From a virus (Duplodnaviria; Caudoviricetes), in the IMG/VR virus record IMGVR_UViG_3300047476_000383, positions 1 through 26,768 of that record: a DNA stretch of 26,768 bases. One strand, 5' to 3'. The notes under the pieces are model-generated. The model was not told the DNA's origin, did no database searches, and worked only from the letters and a program-made list of their open reading frames with translations. The position numbers and the translations under genes were made by a program. Shown here piece after piece: positions 6,913-20,590 of the stretch. The first letter of the stretch is position 1, and each line of letters starts with the position of its first letter.

Positions 6913-6921
6913 TGATATAAT
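6913..6921 (+). promoter_or_regulatory. Extended -10 sigma70 promoter of the HNH gene
   Basis: TGaTATAAT matches the TGnTATAAT consensus exactly; lies in the gap upstream of AGGAGG-ATG(6947). Confidence 0.6.
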
Positions 6922-6946
6922 GCAACCTCTTTTAATAGGAGGTTAT

Positions 6947-7405
6947 ATGAAAAAATGTAACATTTGTAGTATAGAAAAACCTTTGACAGAATTTTATAAA
7001 GGTTATGCTAAGTGCAAGTCATGTCGTTATATGCAAACTGTTTTATACAGAAAAACAGATGCAGGAATTGCGGCTAGAAAAAAAGAAGCTGTAAACGCTA
7101 GAGCGTCTGGAAAGAAAAAAATACGACAAGAGCGTTATAAGCTAACTGAAAAAGGAAAGCTTTGTAGAAAAAAATACGATGAAAGTAGATTTTCTACAGA
7201 AAAAGGAAAAGCTAGGTTAGCTGCTAAAAATGCAGTTAGATACGCAATTAAAGCTGGAAAATTAATAAAAGAACCGTGTTGGATTTGTGGAGATTTAAAT
7301 ACTGTAGCGCATCATCCATCTTATGCCGAAGACATGAGATTAGTTGTAAGTTGGTTATGCGTAAATCATCACAATGAAATACATAACATTCCGAATGAGG
7401 TATAA
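6947..7405 (+). CDS. Free-standing HNH homing endonuclease with N-terminal zinc finger
   Basis: CxxC...CxxC at N-terminus; C-terminal 'PCWICG...AHHPSY...V.WLC..HH.E.H'; Lys-rich; AGGAGG RBS favours ATG 6947 over 6920; interrupts the structural operon. Confidence 0.8.
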   Translation: MKKCNICSIEKPLTEFYKGYAKCKSCRYMQTVLYRKTDAGIAARKKEAVNARASGKKKIRQERYKLTEKGKLCRKKYDESRFSTEKGKARLAAKNAVRYAIKAGKLIKEPCWICGDLNTVAHHPSYAEDMRLVVSWLCVNHHNEIHNIPNEV

Positions 7406-8244: not shown

Positions 8245-8478
8245 ATGGAGAACCAGCAATTGTTTAACATGATTATCACCGCGTCTGGTGCGCTTGGTGG
8301 ATGGATGTTGAAAGTGATTTGGGATGCTATTAGCGACTTAAAAAAAGATGTGAAGGATTTGAACCAAGAAATTCACACAGACTTTTTACGCAAAGATGAT
8401 TACCGAGATGACATCAACGAGATAAAAGGTATGCTCGGAAAGATATTTGATAAGTTAGAAAAGAAGGCTGATAAATAA
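8245..8478 (+). CDS. Small membrane-anchored coiled-coil protein
   Basis: Hydrophobic N-terminus followed by a charged heptad-like helix; TAATG coupling to the next gene. Confidence 0.65.
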   Translation: MENQQLFNMIITASGALGGWMLKVIWDAISDLKKDVKDLNQEIHTDFLRKDDYRDDINEIKGMLGKIFDKLEKKADK

Positions 8479-8819
8479 TGGACATGGCCACGCTTAGCAT
8501 TGTTAAGTTTGGCGATGTAGATTCTCTAGGGGAGTTTCTCTTTGAGAACGGGTTGCAGCATAACTTATTTCAGCAAGTATTTATGGATAACGGCATTACA
8601 GTGCCGTCTTTTCCATTGATTGACGCTAACGTAAATAATTTAGATGATTGGTTATTGGCGCATCAAGTAGAGCATCAGGCATTTGCAGCATTATTAGAGC
8701 TTAACAATCCCTTCAATTTGTTAGATACTGACTGGAATGTTGAAGAAGATTTTTATGATTGGGTAGCGTCACACTTGTATATCCATCAACAAATCGCTGC
8801 GGCATTAGCTCTAACATAA
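8478..8819 (+). CDS. Hypothetical acidic helical protein with duplicated DWxxxHxxxHQ motif
   Basis: DDWLLAHQVEHQ and YDWVASHLYIHQ; coupled within the operon. Confidence 0.7.
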   Translation: MDMATLSIVKFGDVDSLGEFLFENGLQHNLFQQVFMDNGITVPSFPLIDANVNNLDDWLLAHQVEHQAFAALLELNNPFNLLDTDWNVEEDFYDWVASHLYIHQQIAAALALT

Positions 8820-8837: not shown

Positions 8838-9119
8838 ATGGACAAATTGGAATTATTCCACGCGATTGCGCGTGTAGCGAAACCAGCTTATCTGTCGTAC
8901 ACACCGATAGAAAGCCTTGATACTAAGTTTGTTGACAACGGATTAGACAGTTTAGATGTACTTTTAATCTGTGTTTACTATAGTGAGCTATATGGAATTG
9001 AAGAAGAAGTCGCTAAGACAATGCTGCCGACAACGCCGCAAGAAATTTATGATTTCATTGAAGCTCATAAAACTAAAGAACCTAGCAGCCTTGAGGATGC
9101 TTTGGAGCAGATAAAATGA
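8838..9119 (+). CDS. Acyl carrier protein (ACP)-like
   Basis: 93 aa, acidic; 'DTKFVDNGLDSLDVLLI...ELYGIE...TT.QEIYDFI' matches the ACP pattern, with the phosphopantetheine Ser at 8949-8951; GGGGA RBS favours ATG 8838. Confidence 0.8.
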   Translation: MDKLELFHAIARVAKPAYLSYTPIESLDTKFVDNGLDSLDVLLICVYYSELYGIEEEVAKTMLPTTPQEIYDFIEAHKTKEPSSLEDALEQIK

Positions 9120-10222
9120 GAATTTTTCTGACCCATGCAAGAAAAGCAGCAACAGAATATACAGAGTTTTTAGATGATTTAGCGTTTCCTCAAACCGTAC
9201 ATTGGTTTCCTGAGACGTACAAGCGAGTAAATACAGGAATGTTTTATGTTCCTCACTTAGTAGCAGATAAGGTGCTTGACGCTGAATTAGCGACTAAGTT
9301 AAGAGAAGATGGAGTTGGTAAGACGGCATTTATTCTAGCCGCTGGTAATGCAAATTTTGCAGGGATTAATCCTCGGAATGTTAAGCCAACCAGATTGAGC
9401 TACGTTTATAAGTTTTTGCCGTTTTCACTTACTCAAGTGTATGCAGGACGAGTGGCGCAGTCTTTTGGCGTAGATGGCATGGTAACGACTGATAGCTCAG
9501 CGTGTGCTTCTGGCCTTAAAGTGCTGATGGATGTGCAAACACTGATTAAGAATTATGGCTACAATCGTGTGATTGTGCTTGCTGTAGAAGACCAAGTGGC
9601 TAATTCAACATTAGACTTCTTTGGTGAATCTAAAGCGATTTTGTCAGAAGAGGAAGCTAAAACAATTAAGCCTTCAGCTTTTGATAAAACAAATTACGGT
9701 TTTTATGTTGGACAAGGCGCAGCTCTAGCAGTATTTGAAGCAGAGCATATTTTGACTAACAAGCCGATTGCTGAACTTAAAGGCGCTTGGGCTTGTAGCG
9801 AAAATGCAACAAACGCCATTGGCCAACGTGAAGACGGTGAAGGATTTAAGAAAGCTATTGAGGGTGCTTTATTTGCTTCTAGCGTGCATCCTAAAGAAAT
9901 TAAGATTGTTAAGGCGCATGGTACTGGAACTAAGTCTAACAACAATAGCGAAAGAAACGCTTTATTGGCATCATTAGGTAACTTTGTGGCTACTTCTTAC
10001 AAGCAAAGAATTGGTCATACAATGGGTGCTAGTGGATTGCTTGAATCGTTAATGTTATTTGACGATATGGAAAAAGGTTACGTTCCTGAGATATTGAACA
10101 GAACTGAACATGATGAGATATTCTTATCTGAGAAAAGTGATGTTCCTGATGGGTGCGTTTTAAGTTTAGCCGCTGGAATGGGGAATATATACGCAGCAGC
10201 GGTATTTGACACAAGGGTCTAA
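9116..10222 (+). CDS. Beta-ketoacyl-ACP synthase (FabF/FabB-type ketosynthase), divergent N-terminus
   Basis: SSACASG (Cys130), KAHGTGT (His268), KQRIGHTMGASG (His301), 'AFD....GF..GQGAA..VFE', 'SLAAGMG'; ATGA overlap with the ACP gene. Confidence 0.9.
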   Translation: MRIFLTHARKAATEYTEFLDDLAFPQTVHWFPETYKRVNTGMFYVPHLVADKVLDAELATKLREDGVGKTAFILAAGNANFAGINPRNVKPTRLSYVYKFLPFSLTQVYAGRVAQSFGVDGMVTTDSSACASGLKVLMDVQTLIKNYGYNRVIVLAVEDQVANSTLDFFGESKAILSEEEAKTIKPSAFDKTNYGFYVGQGAALAVFEAEHILTNKPIAELKGAWACSENATNAIGQREDGEGFKKAIEGALFASSVHPKEIKIVKAHGTGTKSNNNSERNALLASLGNFVATSYKQRIGHTMGASGLLESLMLFDDMEKGYVPEILNRTEHDEIFLSEKSDVPDGCVLSLAAGMGNIYAAAVFDTRV

Positions 10223-10223
10223 C

Positions 10224-10685
10224 ATGGCTGATTTAGTTGATAGCAAAAAATTAGAGTTGTCTGTTGATGACATTATTCAAAAGGCAGCAATAAATACCAA
10301 TTCCCCTTATTCTTTTGACCAAGTACGCAATTCAATTGCCCGTGAATTAGAAATTCCTGGCACTCAATTCTTACGTCAAGGCAATACTCTTTTTATCATC
10401 CATTACGATAACGATAGAAAAGGTATTTTTCGCGCACTAAACGCAGACACTAACTTCAATTACCTACAGAACAGTATTGAGTTTGTAAAAGCGGCTTACA
10501 ACATGGGCTATGATGTTTTAATCACACAATTCTATGACCCGACAATTGCTAATATTTTCCGTGCAATTTCAAAAAATCCTCCTAACCCTGAAATGGGCTA
10601 CAACATTAAAAAGGCCACAAAAGGATTTTTAGGCACAATTAAACTTGGCCCTACTCGCGGTGAACTTACAAAAGGAGCTAAATAA
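10224..10685 (+). CDS. Hypothetical protein, possibly GNAT-like acyltransferase (occupies the T7 gp13/P22 gp14 position)
   Basis: ATG 1 nt after the KAS stop; 153 aa alpha/beta pattern; immediately precedes the first ejection-like protein; fold inferred mainly from synteny. Confidence 0.55.
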   Translation: MADLVDSKKLELSVDDIIQKAAINTNSPYSFDQVRNSIARELEIPGTQFLRQGNTLFIIHYDNDRKGIFRALNADTNFNYLQNSIEFVKAAYNMGYDVLITQFYDPTIANIFRAISKNPPNPEMGYNIKKATKGFLGTIKLGPTRGELTKGAK

Positions 10686-11623
10686 TGGGTGGAATAGCTG
10701 ACGCAATTGGGGATGCAATTAGTGGGGCTGTTGAAGCTGTTGGTGATGTAGTTGAAGCAGTTGCAGATAATCCTCTTGCTGCTGTAGCGATTGTTGCTGC
10801 GCCTTATGCTGCTCCTGCTTTTGCTGCTGCTGGTGTTCCTGCTGCATTAGCTACGCCTGTAGCTGCTGCGACTATTTCTGGAGCAACAACATTAGCTCAA
10901 GGTGGTGACTTAGGTGACGTACTAAAATCTGCTGGCGCTGCTGGGTTTGGCACTTATGTTGGCGGAAAAGTTGCTGGGTCTGTTGGTAAGGAGTTTGGCA
11001 AGGTTGCTGGCTCTGCTGCTGGTGGAGCTGCTGGTGGTGCTACTGGAGCATTTATTCAAACTGGTGATATTGAAACAGCATTGAAGAGTGGTTTAGTGGC
11101 TGGGGGTACAGCTGGTTTGATTGCAGGTGGCTCAGAAGCATTAAAAGGATTTGGTGAAGGAACTAATGTTACTGGAACTAGAACTAGCGGTGGATTTAGT
11201 CCAGGACAACAAATTCCTACATCACCATTTGGAACTACAGAAACAGTGTCAGCGACTTCACCTTACGGTACAATGACATACGATACAATGCCAAGCATGA
11301 CGTATCAGCCTAGCTTCTTTGAGACAGATGTTGGTCAAACAATAGCTGAAGGCGGTAAACAAGTAGCAGAACAAACAATTAGTGGGCAGTTAGCTGAAAT
11401 CCTAGGATTAATTCCTAGCGGAGCTGCGGCTGGTGGCGGTGGACTTCCTGCCTCAACAGCAACATTTACTGGACAAGGAAATGTTGGCGCTGGAACTGCT
11501 GCACTAGCACAAGCGTTGCGTGTTGCTGACCCAGGTACTCCGTTATTTGGCCCTGCTGGTGGCAAGCAACAAAATGTATGGAACACTGAATCATTACGTT
11601 ATAAAGACGAGACTGGGAGCTAA
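10685..11623 (+). CDS. Internal virion / DNA ejection protein, Gly/Ala-rich and hydrophobic
   Basis: Starts MGGIADAIG; long Ala/Gly zipper segments; AAGGAG RBS; TAATG coupling. Confidence 0.7.
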   Translation: MGGIADAIGDAISGAVEAVGDVVEAVADNPLAAVAIVAAPYAAPAFAAAGVPAALATPVAAATISGATTLAQGGDLGDVLKSAGAAGFGTYVGGKVAGSVGKEFGKVAGSAAGGAAGGATGAFIQTGDIETALKSGLVAGGTAGLIAGGSEALKGFGEGTNVTGTRTSGGFSPGQQIPTSPFGTTETVSATSPYGTMTYDTMPSMTYQPSFFETDVGQTIAEGGKQVAEQTISGQLAEILGLIPSGAAAGGGGLPASTATFTGQGNVGAGTAALAQALRVADPGTPLFGPAGGKQQNVWNTESLRYKDETGS

Positions 11624-11625
11624 CG

Positions 11626-12750
11626 ATGGCTAATCTTGAAAAGCTTTTAAAAACTAATGCTATGTCAAACCTTGATTTGAAGGCATTGGCTCAAATTCTA
11701 CAAAGTAAAGGTCGCAAAGGCGATACGATACTTGCTCACATTACGCCAAAAGAAGCTGAAGAGCTTATGGAAGAGGGCGGAGCTGGCACAATTAACCCTG
11801 CTACTGGTCTCCCTGAGTTTTATGAAGACTACGGTGCTGATAGCTACATGGCTGGCTATAACTATGAAGCCCCTTCATATCAAGCTGCTCCAGACTATAC
11901 GCCAACAACAAGCTTGTCATCATCATCTGATTACTACACTGGTGGTGGTTATAGCCCTGATGATTACACACCAATGTACACGGCTGGCCGTCCAGAATCT
12001 AATTATGGCGGTGACTTTACTGCTGGTGATTATCTCCCAAGCGCTTCTACTGGCTATGGTGATGGCTACAGCTTTACTGACTTTACTGGTAGAGCTGGTG
12101 GCGAAGGAACTGCTACGCCATTGTATCAAGGCGCTCAAGCTGAACAGGCTGCAATGCAACGTGCTGCAAGCCCAGAACTTGCTGCCACTGGTAAAGAAGG
12201 GCCAGGATTAGCTACTCAAGCTTTAGAAAAGTTAAAAAGTGTTACTGGCTTGTCAGAAGAAACATTGAAAAAACTTGGCTTAGCTGGTGCTGTTGGCTTA
12301 TCTGGTTTAGTTACTGGTCGTGCCGCTAGAAAAGAAGGTCAAGCTGCTAAGAAAGAAATGGAAGCTTTAGCTGCCCCTTACCGTACTAGAGGTGCTGAGC
12401 TTACTAATGCTGCAATGCGTGGCGAATTAACTCCACAAAACCAACAAGCTGTTCAGGCTGCTCAAGCTAGACTTGCACAAGACATTCAAGGCCGTGGTGG
12501 TGCTGGTACACAGCAAGCTCAAATGCAAGTGGAAAACTTACGTCAACAAATGCTTGCACAACAATATGACTTGGGCTTGAAAATTAGCTCAATTGCAGAT
12601 AATGTTGCATTAGGCGCGATTAGAACTGGTATGCAAGCAGACCAAGCTATTAACCAAGCTAACCAAGATTTCTTCACACAAATGGCTCAAATCCTTGGTG
12701 GTATGCCTAGTGCTACTGGCGCATCACCACAAATAGTTATTAGAAGGTAA
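11626..12750 (+). CDS. Internal virion / DNA ejection protein
   Basis: 'GRKGDTILAHITPKEA...GG.GTINPATGLPEF' motif, Tyr/Gly/Ser low-complexity middle, Gln/Ala-rich helical C-terminus. Confidence 0.7.
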   Translation: MANLEKLLKTNAMSNLDLKALAQILQSKGRKGDTILAHITPKEAEELMEEGGAGTINPATGLPEFYEDYGADSYMAGYNYEAPSYQAAPDYTPTTSLSSSSDYYTGGGYSPDDYTPMYTAGRPESNYGGDFTAGDYLPSASTGYGDGYSFTDFTGRAGGEGTATPLYQGAQAEQAAMQRAASPELAATGKEGPGLATQALEKLKSVTGLSEETLKKLGLAGAVGLSGLVTGRAARKEGQAAKKEMEALAAPYRTRGAELTNAAMRGELTPQNQQAVQAAQARLAQDIQGRGGAGTQQAQMQVENLRQQMLAQQYDLGLKISSIADNVALGAIRTGMQADQAINQANQDFFTQMAQILGGMPSATGASPQIVIRR

Positions 12751-12757
12751 CTAAATT

Positions 12758-14380
12758 ATGGCTGAATTATCTCAAGCACCAACCGCCCAGACCTCAAAAG
12801 CGTTAGGAACTGATTTCTCTACGCTTCCTATTCGTGAGCAATATGCACAAGTAAAAACTCCAGCACAAGCAAAAGAAGCTTCTTTAATGGGCTTTGAGCA
12901 ACAAAGAACTGGCGCTGAAAAACTTGCTGAGCAAGAAGCTGGCCTTCAAGTGACTGGTGCTGAGCAGAAGCTAAAGGCAATAGAAGACTACGGCACTACT
13001 CAACAGAACTTAATGGGCGAGTATAAGACCAAAAAAGAATCAATGCCGTTTCCTGAGTTTCATCCTACACAAGACAATGCAAGCGATTTAATGACGTTAT
13101 TTAGCGTTGTTGGAACGATTGGTACTGCGATGGGTGCAAGCGGTAAAAATGCTTCTCTAGGGGCTTTAAAATCAATGACAGGCATGATGAAAGGTTATCG
13201 TGAAGGTCGTGCTGATTTATTTACCCGTGAAAAAGCACAGTTTGAAAAAGATTTTAAGACCATGCAAATCAAGCATGAGGAAATTGCAAAAGACTTAAAT
13301 CTTGCATTGCAATTGTCTTCTACTGATAGAGATAAAGCGATGGCTGTCGCTGATGTAGCTATTGCTAAAGCTGGTAGCCCTATTTTGCGTGAAAAAGCTC
13401 GTCTTCAAGGATTGGGGGAAACTGTTAAGTTTTGGAATCAAGTAGGAACTGATTTACAGTCTGCTGCTGACAAGATGGAAGACCGTAAAATCAAACAACA
13501 AGAGATTGGCATTAAAGCTCAAGGCAATGTCATCAGCGCTACTGACCTATACCTTGGCTCTGACGGAAAAGCTTACGCTATCAATAAAATCATGCCAATT
13601 GAAAAACAATTGCCTGAAGGCGTATCAATCGTATCTAAAGTTGGTACTCCAAGTGCCGCTGCTGGCGGTGTCGGCGCTATTCAAAACCGTTACAACATTG
13701 GTATGACTGGCGCAGTCAACGCGCTTGGTATTGAGATTAGCAACCTAGCTTCTGCACCTATCTTTGCTCGTCCTCCAGTGCTTGATAATGTATTAACCAA
13801 TCCTTCCGCTGGTGTGACCGAAGCAGTTGTGGCTAATGCTGGCCGTCAAATTACTGAAGCTGAAGCCCGTGTATTCCAGCAAATGGCTGCTGGTGCATCA
13901 AGAGCTGAAACAATCGTAATGACGCAAGGCCGTCCAGGTGCGGCTACTGGTGAGATGTTTGCTGAGATTGGTAAGCAACAACCTAAAGCTGGTGATTCAT
14001 TAATCTCAACCTATCTATGGCTTGCTCAATTGAAACAAACTGTAAACCTAGCTGAGAAAGATTTGGCTATGGCTGGCGGCAATCCAGAAATGATGAGACA
14101 AGTTGCTGGTGTTAAAGACCAAGTAAACAAACTTATTCCATACGATGTTCAAGACGTAACTCGCGTTATTCGTGGTGGCGGCAAACAATTGCTTGATGAC
14201 AAAGTTGGTTCATTGATTAAAAATTCAGTAAACAATGACCGCTTTGAGAGAGACCTTGTTCTATACGGTTCTACTCCAAGATTTAAAACTAATGAAGAAG
14301 CTCAAGCGGCCTTTAATAAAGGAAAAATTCAAAAAGGCCAGCAAATTATTATTGGAAAAGAAGTGGGTATCTGGGAGTAA
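12758..14380 (+). CDS. Internal virion / DNA ejection protein
   Basis: 540 aa, helical and Ala/Gln/Lys-rich; one hydrophobic stretch (LMTLFSVVGTIGTAMGA); synteny. Confidence 0.65.
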   Translation: MAELSQAPTAQTSKALGTDFSTLPIREQYAQVKTPAQAKEASLMGFEQQRTGAEKLAEQEAGLQVTGAEQKLKAIEDYGTTQQNLMGEYKTKKESMPFPEFHPTQDNASDLMTLFSVVGTIGTAMGASGKNASLGALKSMTGMMKGYREGRADLFTREKAQFEKDFKTMQIKHEEIAKDLNLALQLSSTDRDKAMAVADVAIAKAGSPILREKARLQGLGETVKFWNQVGTDLQSAADKMEDRKIKQQEIGIKAQGNVISATDLYLGSDGKAYAINKIMPIEKQLPEGVSIVSKVGTPSAAAGGVGAIQNRYNIGMTGAVNALGIEISNLASAPIFARPPVLDNVLTNPSAGVTEAVVANAGRQITEAEARVFQQMAAGASRAETIVMTQGRPGAATGEMFAEIGKQQPKAGDSLISTYLWLAQLKQTVNLAEKDLAMAGGNPEMMRQVAGVKDQVNKLIPYDVQDVTRVIRGGGKQLLDDKVGSLIKNSVNNDRFERDLVLYGSTPRFKTNEEAQAAFNKGKIQKGQQIIIGKEVGIWE

Positions 14381-14382
14381 TT

Positions 14383-16908
14383 ATGGCATTTAAACCACAA
14401 GCTACATTAGGGGACGCTCCTATTTCTCAAGAAGCTCCAGCTGCGTCTGAAACGATTGTTGCTCCGACTGTAGATGTTGGTGCTCCTCCTAAGTTTAAAC
14501 CTACTGGAAGTATCAAAGATTCTGGTGGTAACTACGGATTTAAGAAAATGGGTGAGGGTGAAGGCGATTACGTCTCTACTTACTCTGGTGGTCGTAAGTC
14601 TGGCAGTCAAATTGCTGGTGAAACACTAAAAGCTACTGGTATTGGTGGTGCTATTGGTGCGTTTACTCCTGAGATTTTGACTGGACTTGGCATTGCTGCT
14701 GCTCCATTTCCATTAACAGCTCCTTTAGCTCCAGCATTGCTTACTGCTGGTCAAGCTGCCCGTGGAGCACGTTTAGGAACTGCTGCTACTTCTGCGCTAT
14801 TAGCTGGTGGTTCTAAGTTAGCTGGTGAATTAACTCCAGGAAAAGAAACTCCAGTGGCTATCCCTGGAACTGGACGTACAATGCCTCGCGGTGAGCTTGT
14901 AGAGAATGTTGTTGGCTTTGGCGCTCCTGCTGCTGGTGCTGTAGCTAAAAGCGTAGTGCTTAGAGCTCCATTGATGCACAACGTAGTTGCTTATTTCCGT
15001 CAAAAGAGTGGCTCTCAAGGTGAGTATGCTGATGCAGCTGCCCGTGAGCTTGCTAACTTCCGCAATAGAACTCCAGTAAATGAGTTGCTACAAAGCAACC
15101 GTGCGTCTCAACGCTTAGAAGCTTCCAATACTGATTCATACCGTGAAGTATTTAAGTTTTTACAGTCTAAAGACCAAGCCACACAAGATGCAGCTATCGG
15201 TAGAATATCCGCAGCTCAACAGCAAGCAGATAAAATCCTTGCTGATGCTACACAGAGGGCTAATCAATTAGTTACTACTGATAAGGCTAGAGCCAAGCTA
15301 GTTTTAGATGAAGGTGATGCTGCTGCTCGTAGAATCATTGACCAGTCTGTAGATGATGTTGCTAAGAAGCTAGGCATTGCTCGCCGTGCTGAAAGTGCTG
15401 CTCGTAAAGTAACAGCTGCGCCAGGACAAACACTACAGTCTATTGGTAACTTCAATGTGACCAACGCTGAAATCGGCGGAAGCTTACAACAGCGTGTTGT
15501 AGCTAACTTATCATCTGAAGAGCAAGCCCTATCAAGCCAATACACACAAGCTCGTAAGGCTGTGGATGACATTGTGCGTCAAAAAGAAAGCCAAGGCATT
15601 GGCGTTAAGAATACTCAAGCTTTTGCTGAGCTCCGTGACTTTATTGATAGCAAGCTTTTACGCGGTAGGTTTGGTAAGGAAGCGCAATTCGCTCCAGTGA
15701 CAGAAGCGCAACAAAAAAATGTTTACGAAAATATCCGTAAAGCCATTAACGACCAAGAGATTTTAATCGGGGTTAGCCAAGACGGTACGCCAGTCTATCG
15801 TAAAGTGCCAACAAGCTTTGAAGCGCTTGACCATGTACGCCGCAAGTTAGGCGAAGTGTTTGATGGCAAGGCAGTTGAAGGCTATGACGGCTTATTGAAA
15901 GACCAAGCTAGAGATTTATACGGAAAAATCCGTAAAATCCAAACTGAGTACACAGACAATGCTTATGACAGCGTGCTTAAAAACTATGCAGAAGGCAAAG
16001 GCGCAGTCAATGAACTTGGTATTCCTACTGGTGCTAAGCTTACTAAGACTGACCGCTTAAACCCTGAGTATTTAACCTATGACCCATCTGGCTTGCCTAA
16101 TGAGTTTTTCTCAAGCCGCAAGAAGGTTCAAGACTTAATCACTTTGGTGCGTGACCCTGCTTATGTAGAGCAACAAGCATCAAATCATGTGGCTCGCGTA
16201 CTTAAAGACAAGGACGCTAAGTTTGCAGAGAAATATCTGTTCGACAATAAAGAATGGATTAGCTTATTCCCTAACCTAGAGCGTAATGTAGCTGCTCATA
16301 CGGCTGCATTGAAGCGTGGTGAGAGCGTAGCGCCTAAATCTACAACGCTGGCTCAATCATTGCGTACAGAAGTTAAAGCTCTTCCTGGAGTAGCACAGAA
16401 AGAAGCTGCGGCAACACAAAAAGAGGCTGCAAAATCAGCAAAACAGATTGAAGAAGAATCTCGTAAGCAAGCTAAACAGATTATGGGTGAAGCTCAAGCA
16501 CAAGCTAAAGTTTTAAGTGCTAGTGCTAAGCAAGCTCAAAAACTATTGGGGACTGGAGACCCTGTAGCTGAGATTGAGAAGCTTATCCTTACTGGACAGA
16601 CTAAACGCTTAGAAGAGATTGCTCCTCTATTAAAAGAGGATGCCAATGCGATGCGTGCTTTCGACCAGTCATTGAAAATTACGCTTTCACGCGAAAACCC
16701 AGCTACTATTGTTGATAAGTGGGAGCGTACAATTAAACCAGCATTATCAAATACAGGCTTAATCTCACCAGCACAAGCGGACAACATTACTAAACGTATT
16801 AACCAAGTAAGAATGACGCTTGAGCCTAATGAGGCGGCCTTAACAATGGTATCTATCATTCGTGGTGGTACTACATCATCAGTCGCAAGAAGTTTATCAG
16901 GAGAATAA
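14383..16908 (+). CDS. Large internal virion / DNA ejection protein
   Basis: 841 aa; hydrophobic Gly/Ala segments near the N-terminus followed by long coiled-coil regions; synteny. Confidence 0.65.
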   Translation: MAFKPQATLGDAPISQEAPAASETIVAPTVDVGAPPKFKPTGSIKDSGGNYGFKKMGEGEGDYVSTYSGGRKSGSQIAGETLKATGIGGAIGAFTPEILTGLGIAAAPFPLTAPLAPALLTAGQAARGARLGTAATSALLAGGSKLAGELTPGKETPVAIPGTGRTMPRGELVENVVGFGAPAAGAVAKSVVLRAPLMHNVVAYFRQKSGSQGEYADAAARELANFRNRTPVNELLQSNRASQRLEASNTDSYREVFKFLQSKDQATQDAAIGRISAAQQQADKILADATQRANQLVTTDKARAKLVLDEGDAAARRIIDQSVDDVAKKLGIARRAESAARKVTAAPGQTLQSIGNFNVTNAEIGGSLQQRVVANLSSEEQALSSQYTQARKAVDDIVRQKESQGIGVKNTQAFAELRDFIDSKLLRGRFGKEAQFAPVTEAQQKNVYENIRKAINDQEILIGVSQDGTPVYRKVPTSFEALDHVRRKLGEVFDGKAVEGYDGLLKDQARDLYGKIRKIQTEYTDNAYDSVLKNYAEGKGAVNELGIPTGAKLTKTDRLNPEYLTYDPSGLPNEFFSSRKKVQDLITLVRDPAYVEQQASNHVARVLKDKDAKFAEKYLFDNKEWISLFPNLERNVAAHTAALKRGESVAPKSTTLAQSLRTEVKALPGVAQKEAAATQKEAAKSAKQIEEESRKQAKQIMGEAQAQAKVLSASAKQAQKLLGTGDPVAEIEKLILTGQTKRLEEIAPLLKEDANAMRAFDQSLKITLSRENPATIVDKWERTIKPALSNTGLISPAQADNITKRINQVRMTLEPNEAALTMVSIIRGGTTSSVARSLSGE

Positions 16909-17716: not shown

Positions 17717-18067
17717 ATGGCTAATAATATTGCTTTTCAGCCAATGGGAGCTTTGGTTGTAATGACTGCATCATCAGCTAATGTGCAGGGCAATGTTGTC
17801 ACCATTACTGCCTCAAGCCCGTCAAACCAATACTATGTATCTAACCCAGACAAAGACAATGGCATTTTTGTTGCGTATGGTCAAACAGCTAACATTACAG
17901 CGTCAATTCCAGTCGAAGGAACTCCTGCTAATGTAGTTTACATTCCTCCATATACTTCTAAAGTGTTTACTGGCCCTCAATGCAGTGCTACTAAAACAGT
18001 TTATGCACGAATGATTGGCCCACACAACAATGCAGTATGCTATGTCTGCCCAGGTGAAGGCTTGTAA
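17717..18067 (+). CDS. Small beta-rich virion-like protein (paralog of 6563..6892)
   Basis: Shared motifs AF..xG, NQY...N, F..YG and terminal Y..PG(D/E)GL. Confidence 0.7.
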   Translation: MANNIAFQPMGALVVMTASSANVQGNVVTITASSPSNQYYVSNPDKDNGIFVAYGQTANITASIPVEGTPANVVYIPPYTSKVFTGPQCSATKTVYARMIGPHNNAVCYVCPGEGL

Positions 18068-18573
18068 TGACGCGTAATCAGCCAGGTCTCAATTGGATTG
18101 AAGAAGCTTACAAGCATATAGGCCAAAAAGAGATTGTTGGCATCAAGTCTAACCCATGGATATTGAAGCTGTGGCAATTGAAAGACAAGTGGCTTGGTAC
18201 TGACGATAGCAAAGTGCCTTGGTGCGGAGCTTTTGTTAATTATGTTTTGACTAATTGTGGTTACTCAACCATTAAGACTTATTATCGTGCAAGAGACTGG
18301 GCTAAATGGGGTCAAGCATTACCTAAACCATGCGCTGGATGTATTGTAGTGTTTCAACGTACTGGCGGCGGTCATGTGGGCTTCCTTTTAGGACAAGATA
18401 AGAGTGGCAACCTTTTAGTGCTTGGTGGAAACCAAGGGGATAGCGTAAACATTGCTGCTTTTGACCCGAATAGAGCTATTGCCTATCGCTGGCCTAATGA
18501 AAAGGCAGTGCCGCAAAAGTTTTATTTACCTGTTACAACTGCTAAAGTAAAACTTAGCACTAACGAAGCATAG
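18067..18573 (+). CDS. Endolysin, TIGR02594-type CHAP/NlpC-P60 peptidoglycan hydrolase
   Basis: 'WIEEA...IGQKEI.G...NP.I', 'PWCGAFV', 'GGGHVGF', 'VLGGNQGD.V', 'YRWP'. Confidence 0.9.
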   Translation: MTRNQPGLNWIEEAYKHIGQKEIVGIKSNPWILKLWQLKDKWLGTDDSKVPWCGAFVNYVLTNCGYSTIKTYYRARDWAKWGQALPKPCAGCIVVFQRTGGGHVGFLLGQDKSGNLLVLGGNQGDSVNIAAFDPNRAIAYRWPNEKAVPQKFYLPVTTAKVKLSTNEA

Positions 18574-18582
18574 GAGATAACA

Positions 18583-18750
18583 ATGTTTAATTTCATCTTA
18601 GAACGTAGCAAAGAACCATCATCATGGCGCGGCATTTCTTTATTCTTAACAGCTTTAGGCATCTATGTTGAGCCAGCTTTATACACACAGATTACAACTG
18701 TTGGGGTTGGCATTGCTGGTCTTATCGGCATGGTAACAAAGGATAAGTAA
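18583..18750 (+). CDS. Holin-like 55-aa membrane protein (not in ORF track)
   Basis: MFNFILERSKEPSSWRGIFLFLTALGIYVEPALYTQITTVGVGIAGLIGMVTKDK; AGGAG RBS; two TM segments; follows the endolysin. Confidence 0.75.
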   Translation: MFNFILERSKEPSSWRGISLFLTALGIYVEPALYTQITTVGVGIAGLIGMVTKDK

Positions 18751-18926
18751 TGAAAAAAGAAACTAAAATCGCAAAAGTAATGCGTGAGTTTAAAAAAGGT
18801 GAGCTCCATTCTGGTAAAGGTGGCCCAGTAGTTACCAATCCAAAACAAGGCATTGCTATTGCATTGTCTGAAGCGTCACGCATGAAACGTAAGGCTAAAG
18901 GTTCTGCTCGTAAAAGCAAACGATAG
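18750..18926 (+). CDS. Small basic protein, DUF6496-like (not in ORF track)
   Basis: MKKETKIAKVMREFKKGELHSGKGGPVVTNPKQGIAIALSEASRMKRKAKGSARKSKR; TAATG coupling. Confidence 0.75.
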   Translation: MKKETKIAKVMREFKKGELHSGKGGPVVTNPKQGIAIALSEASRMKRKAKGSARKSKR

Positions 18927-18931
18927 ACAGC

Positions 18932-19198
18932 ATGGCTACTAGCTTATCAATCAAGCGTGGTGAAAAGCTACCTACATCACAAGGGGCTGGTCTTACTGCT
19001 AAAGGTCGCGCGAAATATAACCGAGAGACTGGAAGCAATCTAAAAGCGCCAGCTCCAAACCCTAAGACTAAGCGTGATGCCGCTAGAAAGAAATCCTTTT
19101 GTGCGCGTATGTCTGGTATGCCAGGCCCTATGCGTGACAGTAAAGGAAGGCCAACACGAAAAGCCGCTTCACTTAGAAGGTGGGGCTGTAGAAGGTAA
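18932..19198 (+). CDS. Small basic phage protein, DUF6321-like
   Basis: 'GLTAKGRAKYNRETGSNLKAP...RKKSFCARMSG...SLRRWGC'. Confidence 0.75.
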   Translation: MATSLSIKRGEKLPTSQGAGLTAKGRAKYNRETGSNLKAPAPNPKTKRDAARKKSFCARMSGMPGPMRDSKGRPTRKAASLRRWGCRR

Positions 19199-19846: not shown

Positions 19847-20590
19847 TTACGCTGATTGCAACAGCTTGCCATCAAATACATACGTTCCTACATGGCCTAG
19901 CTGAACCCACGGTGCGGCATGAACCTTACCGCCATGCTTACGCCATAGCATACAGAAATGATAGTCTTCTGATAGCAAACGATTAGTGCCTTCCTCTATG
20001 CTGGTGGCAAAGTATTCTTTAATCACATCAGCTTTGATTGTGCCAGCCAAGTCTAGTACGTCATTATTATAAGTCGGTACTTTATCTGCAAGCTTCTCAA
20101 ACACTTCACGTTTAATTAGCATGAAGCCAGTGCCGCCGTTCCAAATCTCTACTGGTTGATTGACTGGGATGGTCACTGAGTTTTCGTAGCCTACTAGGTT
20201 GACTACAAAGCTTCCTGTATTGAATTGAAGCTTCTCATCAGGCTCGCCACGTTCAACAGCAGCACGAACAGCCGCCCAGTTAATCTCTTTCTTAGGGTAA
20301 ATGCCACAGATAATATCTTTATCGACTTCAAGCATCGGGAATATGTCTGCTGGATTAAATTTAATATCAGCATCAATGAACATCATGTGGGTGGCTTCTG
20401 ACTTCAAGAAGTTATGCACTAGCGCGTTGCGTGCGCGTGTGATTAAGCTCTCATTAAACATGAAGCTATATGTTACTGTCACCCCAACCTTTTGCGCTTG
20501 ATTTTGAAGCGTTAGCATTGCTTGAGTGTAGTAGCCAGCACACATTCCACCGTACATTGGCGTGGCTATAAAGATATGGTGCTTGTTCAT
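19847..20590 (-). CDS. GT-A fold (GT2-like) glycosyltransferase-like protein
   Basis: 'IFIATPMYGG', 'ESLITRARN', DxD motif 'FIDADI', 'GTGFMLIKREVF', 'LSEDYHFC', 'HVG'. Confidence 0.8.
   Translation of the reverse strand: MNKHHIFIATPMYGGMCAGYYTQAMLTLQNQAQKVGVTVTYSFMFNESLITRARNALVHNFLKSEATHMMFIDADIKFNPADIFPMLEVDKDIICGIYPKKEINWAAVRAAVERGEPDEKLQFNTGSFVVNLVGYENSVTIPVNQPVEIWNGGTGFMLIKREVFEKLADKVPTYNNDVLDLAGTIKADVIKEYFATSIEEGTNRLLSEDYHFCMLWRKHGGKVHAAPWVQLGHVGTYVFDGKLLQSA

Follow-up and report, generated by a model that had tools for sequence, protein, structure and literature searches.

The window analysed here is a 26,768-nt (26.8-kb) virus record assigned to Caudoviricetes (IMG/VR record IMGVR_UViG_3300047476_000383), which has a twin in an identical 38.8-kb record rated complete (L001/G011). 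On its plus strand, four consecutive genes of the virion operon encode a divergent acyl carrier protein (ACP; 8838..9119), a FabF-fold beta-ketoacyl synthase (ketosynthase; 9116..10222), a predicted GNAT-fold protein (10224..10685) and the first presumed ejection (pilot) protein (10685..11623). An ATGA overlap joins the ACP-like open reading frame (ORF) to the ketosynthase, 1 nt separates the ketosynthase from the 153-aa GNAT-fold ORF, and a TAATG couples the latter to the fourth gene, which starts with Met-Gly-Gly. These coordinates, codon positions, overlaps and gaps, taken from a first-pass annotation made from the sequence alone, all hold on re-check. The first three genes and an N-terminal leader on the fourth product are likely a portable tag-and-tagger unit, by which phages likely attach a home-made lipid to a presumed ejection protein.

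The ACP, 93 aa from its ATG, is preceded by a Shine-Dalgarno-like GGGGA and contains the motif GLDSLD. Ser38 (codon AGT at 8949-8951) is the predicted phosphopantetheine site, and D37, S38 and D40 (D-S-x-D) are invariant in 30 aligned homologues. When a profile of this 30-sequence family was compared with the PDB, ACP structures ranked first and filled the match list (best E-value 4e-4). The window ACP alone matched nothing in Pfam, and TIGR00517 only at an E-value of 0.035.

The 368-aa ketosynthase was recognized by Pfam (PF02801, E-value 4e-18; PF00109, E-value 4.4e-12). Its structural model (predicted local distance difference test, pLDDT, 89.6) is consistent with a thiolase-type ketosynthase fold, with Foldseek matches to FabF and to ketosynthases of type II polyketide synthases (PKS) at E-values of 7.5e-24 to 4e-21 and template-modelling (TM) scores of about 0.8. 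The catalytic residues are encoded at 9503-9505 (Cys130), 9917-9919 (His268), 10001-10003 (Lys296) and 10016-10018 (His301). C130, H268, T270, T272, K296 and H301, that is, the Cys-His-His triad, the conserved Lys and the HGTGT threonines, are invariant in 60/60 dereplicated family members. Identity to FabF structures is about 20% (16-23% structural identity). We rejected membership of the FabF or FabB equivalogs, because the scores fall far under the curated cut-offs (TIGR03150 for FabF, 115.2 versus 493.75 bits; FabB, 41 versus 630) and Pfam detected no FabG, FabD or FabZ in the 38.8-kb genome (47 + 17 ORFs). In one contig (L073 / L082) the ketosynthase homologue is in three pieces and the downstream genes are fragmented too, possibly by sequencing errors.

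The first-pass annotation had recognized no reductase, dehydratase, FabD or phosphopantetheinyl transferase (PPTase), and Pfam searches bear this out for the 47 ORFs of the window and the 17 further ORFs of the twin. More broadly, PPTase (PF01648) was not found in 24 viral records (23 of them near-complete), while a control search detected it in 10/14 genomes. Priming of the ACP would therefore have to come from a host enzyme, as the annotation had proposed.

The 153-aa protein, which carries a FRALNAD motif, was placed by its predicted structure. A model built from 107 sequences (pLDDT 90.9) gave in a VIA search a best Z of 10.7, with a root-mean-square deviation of 2.4 over 119 residues; the 50 chains listed have the N-acyltransferase fold, and no HlyC-type structure is among them. 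Foldseek returned GNAT matches (E-value 1.6e-4), with RNase E rows interspersed at low TM, and a viral structure library returned uncultured phage proteins and two entries labelled 'internal virion protein A' (E-values 4.8e-5 and 1.6e-3). Sequence searches were less informative. The Acetyltransf/GNAT and internal virion protein A (IVP-A) Pfam families had no match in the 107 members up to an E-value of 1, PHROG and NCBIfam gave nothing, and the nearest named Atlas cluster was DUF2824 (0.93, on only 140 shared features), which we take to be P22 gp14. Among the profile searches that the first-pass annotation had suggested, Pfam thus recognized the ketosynthase and neither the ACP alone nor the GNAT-fold protein. 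Canonical acetyl-CoA GNATs have a glycine-rich pyrophosphate-binding loop as their motif A; here, strand 66-73 continues through Ala-Asp-Thr, with no Gly, into helix 77-93. Five polar residues (S7, E41, N54, N73 and D75) are invariant in the family.

The gene sits immediately before the first internal virion protein and after the nozzle gene, although in the window tail-fibre genes lie between the nozzle-like gene and the cassette. This is the IVP-A (T7 gp13) slot, so that the small GNAT-like gene which the first-pass annotation had named as common before podovirus ejection genes is matched here by a protein of predicted GNAT fold. In the accessible text of Hardies et al. (PMC4819975), the IVP-A gene is small, lies between those for tail tubular B and IVP-B, and has a non-structural product that matches acetyltransferases and is required for T7 morphogenesis; no acyl donor or substrate is described there, and in phiRIO-1 an unrelated protein is reported to replace it. 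Such a replacement would suit a non-catalytic chaperone that binds an amphipathic leader during head assembly, with acyl-ACP at most a bound cofactor. The missing glycine-rich loop between strand and helix and the missing GNAT Pfam match would suit it as well, and so would relatives with an unrelated helical protein, or nothing, in the slot. We nevertheless regard a chaperone as quite unlikely, since the invariant polar residues fit a predicted active site, a catalytically intact ketosynthase would not be needed, and carrier-protein-dependent GNATs are known (GdvG of goadvionin, FeeM and SbzI, as covered in the available part of PMC11685415).

The fourth gene encodes a Gly/Ala-rich protein of 312 aa that has no match in Pfam, PHROG or NCBIfam and falls into unnamed viral clusters only in the Atlas. 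We infer that the genes downstream of the GNAT gene are ejection proteins from two observations. In 55-kb-type loci, the second gene after the GNAT gene matches PHROG 4287 'DNA ejection protein' (E-value 1.9e-10), and in GenBank MW202545 the order is stabilization protein, ACP, ketosynthase, GNAT-like protein, three large genes and SLT transglycosylase.

Codons 1-30 (10685..10774, plus strand) form an amphipathic acidic leader free of Lys and Cys, which we propose as the acyl acceptor. Dereplication at 85% GNAT identity reduced the 290 loci that have a gene after the GNAT to 95; in these the leader reads M-[SGA]-[AG]-V-[VA] and continues as an amphipathic helix that is mostly acidic. Residue 2 is Ser in 51, Gly in 32, Ala in 7, Pro in 3, Met in 1 and Arg in 1, so that G, S or A is found in 90/95, as opposed to 37% in 425 background genes. 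Residues 2-25 are Lys-free in 68/95 and Cys-free in 92/95. The first-pass annotation had singled out Gly2 as the acylation site; this must be revised, as what is conserved is a small residue and the amphipathic leader. A eukaryote-type N-myristoylation, or any rule of that kind for Gly2, was rejected for the same reason, Gly not being obligatory. In three loci (L376, L421 and L018) the first ejection gene has a leader with periodic cysteines (up to four in residues 2-25), possibly an alternative acylation or disulfide pattern.

In two unrelated lineages, phages have acquired or lost leader and cassette together. We used a profile trained on 46 leaders outside the cluster of the window protein, two of which share a 34-36-residue patch with the window protein further in. 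The window leader scores 38.7 bits. In the window lineage, the cassette loci score 34-44 bits (5/5), whereas cassette-less relatives score <3 bits in 41/45, even though many of them keep the same C-terminus of the first ejection protein. In a second, nozzle-anchored lineage (51 distinct evaluable loci from 113 fetched), the leader is present in 8/8 cassette loci, 6 of which are in the training set, and in 0/43 others. In the cultured Caulobacter phage RW the virion module is the same (38-64%; adaptor 64%, nozzle 54%), but trio and leader are both missing. Protein bodies behind the leader are largely unrelated between lineages. Because the leader co-segregates with the GNAT gene or the cassette in both lineages, and is missing in RW, the unit of gain and loss is the transferase plus the tag, usually with ACP and ketosynthase.

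Linkage was tallied on six-frame translations, counting only loci with enough flank; the loci were not dereplicated, some share a contig and one is the twin of the window. For 76 loci found with the ketosynthase, the ACP was adjacent in 74/74 and the GNAT gene in 60/60. Among the best 80 of 297 loci found with the GNAT profile, the ACP was adjacent in 74/74 and the GNAT gene in 80/80. With a divergent ketosynthase, 31 loci were found, with the ACP adjacent in 31/31 and the GNAT gene in 20/24; in the 4 exceptions the ACP-ketosynthase pair lies behind an SNF2 helicase. The gene order ACP, ketosynthase, GNAT, ejection protein, for which the first-pass annotation had suggested a synteny survey, is therefore conserved across viral loci. 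In all three genes, pN (nonsynonymous) is well below pS (synonymous), in 9/9 pairs among three close relatives. An order kept in many contigs and this pN/pS pattern argue that the trio is no chance assembly, and the cassette is real and widespread among uncultured aquatic phages.

A rank-independent scan for the GNAT motif covered 119 loci, in which a ketosynthase was adjacent in 79 and non-adjacent in 23, the other 17 being too short; for the GNAT gene alone, we estimate that IMG/VR stores about 310 stretches, in several unrelated phage lineages. Non-adjacent does not always mean absent. Among 34 records with a GNAT gene and no adjacent ketosynthase, 3, including the only near-complete one, have a ketosynthase 17-21 kb away; most of the other 31 are too short on the relevant side, and a weak match in G047 (E-value 6e-4) was not counted. 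Conversely, for the ACP-ketosynthase pairs of the SNF2-helicase type, the GNAT gene was on the same contig in 2/5 records, namely the two longest. No ketosynthase was found in five fragments with an unlinked GNAT gene, which are only 21-35% complete. The dependence looks one-way: the GNAT gene occurs without a ketosynthase, and a ketosynthase without a GNAT gene was not seen in any long viral record. The pairs directly after the SNF2 helicase (L164, L183-L185, L190, L433 and L434) lie in the replication arm of 60-kb phages and belong to two separate ketosynthase subclades; in G073 this site is empty.

ACP, ketosynthase and GNAT are the only proteins common to the window and four 55-kb-type loci (a fifth locus shares one more small gene), which argues that the three genes move together. 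A conserved 113-aa gene (8478..8819, plus strand) borders the cassette on its upstream side and served as an anchor for finding cassette-less relatives. Its best 80 relatives are 73-100% identical, and only in the twin is ACP-ketosynthase next to it. The first-pass view that the genes do not look like a moron insert is thus not upheld, given a portable cassette that is absent from 13/13 near-complete relatives. An obligate core gene set was likewise rejected, owing to near-complete relatives without the ketosynthase and genomes with the GNAT gene only. In anchor relatives without the cassette (L223-L301) the slot holds a 104-129-aa helical unknown, a distant homologue of the window GNAT, or nothing; the helical unknown sometimes precedes a canonical GNAT (L283, PF00583, E-value 5e-11). 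The slot after the anchor gene is a hot spot for swapping.

The same ACP-ketosynthase family also occurs in bacteria. A scan of species genomes gave 25 loci, 10 of them of the ketosynthase family of the cassette; five of these are phage-like contigs. (Phage-like contigs binned in bacterial metagenome-assembled genomes (MAGs), namely L157, L160, L161, L164 and L166, were not used as host evidence.) Two Burkholderiales MAGs show the order HlyC-like, ACP, ketosynthase, HlyC (L162:3775-6021, L163:5283-7661), with RTX-repeat genes nearby, and a metagenome contig repeats it (L217:539-2769). The downstream HlyC was found at E-values of 5e-21, 3.7e-18 and 1.3e-21, respectively, while the upstream HlyC-like gene passes Pfam in L162 only. 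About 30 ketosynthase clusters are related to those of the bacterial HlyC cassettes (57-100% identity), and the bacterial-type ketosynthase had no match in the plasmid collection. The arrangement suggests that an RTX acylation locus has an acyl donor of its own; no description of this was found in the literature. The arrangement also parallels the phage cassette, as the same ACP-ketosynthase pair stands beside a second acyltransferase, unrelated in sequence, and so lends support to the first-pass idea of a private ACP and ketosynthase serving protein acylation. Two of these bacterial cassettes have a LuxR regulator ahead, and an outer-membrane efflux gene is present in L163.

In a quick maximum-likelihood tree with SH-aLRT support and no bootstrap, in which long branches come together and 12 other bacterial ketosynthases, not curated FabF, serve as the outgroup, the family forms one clade (100), with the HlyC-type group (99) sister to the phage group (99). 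Two orphan cellular ACP-ketosynthase pairs nest among the phages; they come from Nitrosomonadaceae and Rhodocyclaceae MAGs (L158:441-1843 and L159:5708-7125), incomplete genomes in which no HlyC was seen. The most divergent family member lies in a locus that is also cellular (L221:2239-7328) and comprises an MMPL transporter, a desaturase-like gene (E-value 6e-4), ACP, ketosynthase and a 4Fe-4S ferredoxin, which suggests specialised lipid synthesis.

The HlyC and CdiC-type enzymes beside the bacterial copies are Lys acyltransferases. ACP, ketosynthase and GNAT could thus form one acylation pathway whose acceptor is an internal Lys or Ser of this or another ejection protein, as in HlyC systems, or a host envelope molecule, with the leader for recognition only; the same co-segregation would be seen with a leader used for docking. 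However, residue 2 is restricted to small residues, positions 3-5 are conserved and, past the leader, the proteins of different lineages are for the most part unrelated, which makes another acceptor rather unlikely. A direct comparison of two RTX N-termini with the phage leader was weak and was not used: against about 1,400 control N-termini they ranked 1 and 64 with a 30-residue profile, and 19 and 47 with a 60-residue profile.

With a little better than even confidence, we favor the explanation that the first ejection protein is acylated at its N-terminus from an acyl-ACP supply of the phage's own. A host PPTase would prime the phage ACP, on which the ketosynthase would then load or elongate an acyl chain private to the phage, presumably with malonyl loading; the intact His-His-Lys set favors condensation as its putative role. 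As no reductase or dehydratase is encoded, the product is probably 3-oxoacyl or similar, unless the host finishes it. Met aminopeptidase would then expose a small residue (Gly, Ser, Ala or Pro), in line with the established rule for Met removal, and the GNAT would transfer the chain from the ACP to the N-terminal amine of the amphipathic leader. A small residue 2 and conserved positions 3-5 fit recognition of a free N-terminus. Lipid and amphipathic helix together might help to seat the protein in the outer membrane of the host after ejection, or to pack it into the head. ACP and ketosynthase would be an optional donor upgrade, and the GNAT alone would use a host acyl donor. The genes, residues, predicted folds, linkage and leader co-segregation are observed, and the acylation chemistry is what they would imply. 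For T7 gp14, channel formation in bilayers is reported (PMC8954989, in the available text of which acylation is not mentioned). We see about an even chance that all parts belong to one self-encoded phage protein-lipidation system, in which a two-gene acyl-ACP module, common with bacterial RTX-acylation loci, would provide an unusual acyl chain, the IVP-A-slot GNAT would attach it to the portable 30-residue leader, and the lipid would anchor the ejection channel in the host envelope.

Several observations count against N-terminal acylation from a private supply. The window protein at 10685..11623 is presumed to be an ejection protein by position only, and the fold matches do not distinguish CoA-using from ACP-using GNATs. 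The remaining 4/45 cassette-less loci of the window lineage score 13-23 bits and combine a distant GNAT homologue with Lys-rich amphipathic leaders. The ketosynthase is absent from 32/33 anchor-relative records searched, including the 13/13 other near-complete ones, and RW is viable without the cassette, which is hence dispensable at the lineage level. Among 50,697 GenBank phage records the trio was found in one uncultured genome only, with no cultured carrier. The bacterial HlyC loci form one clade (ketosynthases about 70% alike), are rare (1/401 and 1/25 genomes) and count as one event; the cellular members L158, L159 and L221 have no adjacent acyltransferase; and HlyC-type enzymes acylate internal Lys, not N-termini (for CdiC, the accessible part of PMC8510554). 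Finally, two near-complete genomes (100% and 94%) keep a close GNAT gene with no ketosynthase anywhere, and in G073 (77% complete) the 1.4-kb ACP-ketosynthase segment is missing between flanks 85-87% identical to a carrier genome, with GNAT and leader kept. The leader thus tracks the GNAT gene more tightly than it tracks ACP and ketosynthase.

This persistence of GNAT and leader would also be expected if the GNAT drew on acetyl-CoA or acyl-ACP of the host to modify the leader, which may be what IVP-A proteins do in general, and if ACP and ketosynthase were a hitch-hiking auxiliary metabolic pair with a separate product. The pair is sometimes located amid replication genes, orphan cellular copies branch within the phage clade, the distant member L221 adjoins a desaturase-like gene and an MMPL transporter, and fabG-acpP-fabF has been reported as auxiliary metabolic genes (AMGs) in roseobacter prophages (accessible text of PMC8224337). 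Yet no near-complete viral record with the ketosynthase was seen without the GNAT gene (three short fragments being uninformative), the three genes are transferred jointly between virion modules that are unrelated, the ketosynthase is only about 20% identical to FabF structures and lacks a FabG partner, and in the bacterial sister clade the neighbours are protein acyltransferases. We consider a host donor combined with a hitch-hiking pair unlikely.

Under N-terminal acylation from a private supply, the cassette would resemble a carrier-dependent N-acylation system added to an already known position, the IVP-A slot. As in T7 and the P22 homologue (PMC4819975, available text), a small acetyltransferase-fold gene lies between the tail-tube or nozzle gene and the first ejection protein; unlike there, the GNAT-fold protein matches no GNAT or IVP-A Pfam family and comes with its own ACP, ketosynthase and co-inherited substrate-like leader. 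RTX and CdiA lipidation (HlyC, CdiC) is alike in that a membrane-engaging protein is acylated by a dedicated transferase encoded alongside; CdiC, a HlyC homologue, adds 3-hydroxydecanoate to CdiA, which helps outer-membrane binding (accessible part of PMC8510554). In three bacterial loci, HlyC genes have members of the same ACP-ketosynthase family next to them. However, the phage transferase does not belong to the HlyC family, its proposed acceptor is an N-terminus instead of an internal Lys, and a private ACP and ketosynthase are encoded, whereas HlyC uses the acyl-ACP of its host. Neither HlyC (PF02794) nor the RTX repeat (PF00353) was matched in window ORFs, both being found only beside the bacterial ACP-ketosynthase copies.

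In goadvionin-type lipopeptide clusters a GNAT joins an acyl chain to a ribosomal peptide, the acceptor being the N-terminal amine. Their likeness to the phage cassette lies in a dedicated ACP, condensing enzyme and GNAT beside a ribosomal substrate, a role that the phage protein would have by inference. Those clusters have fuller fatty acid synthase (FAS) or PKS sets, a short precursor peptide, and peptide-modifying and chain-tailoring enzymes. Nothing of the latter three kinds was found by Pfam in the phage genome, which has two genes only for the acyl supply and presumably a large virion protein as target. With type II FAS (AcpP and FabF/FabB) the cassette shares an ACP adjoining a Cys-His-His ketosynthase of FabF fold; in contrast, the phage ketosynthase forms its own long-branched clade, with no FabG or FabD, within a virion operon. 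Membership of FabF, HlyC or N-myristoylation systems was rejected on scores, Pfam content and residue 2. No account of this cassette was found in the literature, subscription papers and supplements not being covered; the nearest published case is that of the roseobacter prophages mentioned above, where the genes are read as AMGs (PMC8224337, in its accessible part).

IVP-A, as far as the available text of PMC4819975 goes, is needed for morphogenesis and has no described donor or substrate; the cassette supplies candidates for both. Phage 'fabF/acpP' genes counted as AMGs may be morphogenesis genes, and through the shared ACP-ketosynthase family, phage genome delivery is connected with the way in which RTX and CdiA proteins are lipidated. 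If such a self-encoded lipidation system exists, the ejection protein would be the first one described as lipidated, the IVP-A/gp13 slot would represent a general N-acylation step in podovirus assembly, and the trio with its leader would amount to a small genetically encoded lipid-tagging kit.

Composition does not set the trio apart from its surroundings. GC is 0.36-0.40 and GC at third codon positions (GC3) 0.31-0.36, inside the range of the neighbouring genes, and between 7400 and 12800 both promoter-like (12 versus 10.1 expected) and terminator-like sites (4 versus 4.6 expected) are at chance level. RNA data yielded one run with a share of 0.07, and a 212-nt identical contig spans 8658-8869, but contigs cannot show transcription. 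Downstream of the first presumed ejection protein lie three more on the plus strand (11626-12750, 12758-14380 and 14383-16908, together 11626..16908), assigned by gene order and size only and having no match in Pfam or PHROG. An HNH-type endonuclease (6920-7405; PHROG 2340, E-value 7e-25; GC 0.33, GC3 0.19) is inserted among the tail genes. A CHAP amidase, DUF6496 and DUF6321 close the late operon, with a glycosyltransferase-like gene on the minus strand (18067-19198 and 19847-20590). The remainder of the 38.8-kb twin (L448) encodes an ArdC-like anti-restriction protein, a beta-clamp-like domain protein, the terminase and an SU10-type portal.

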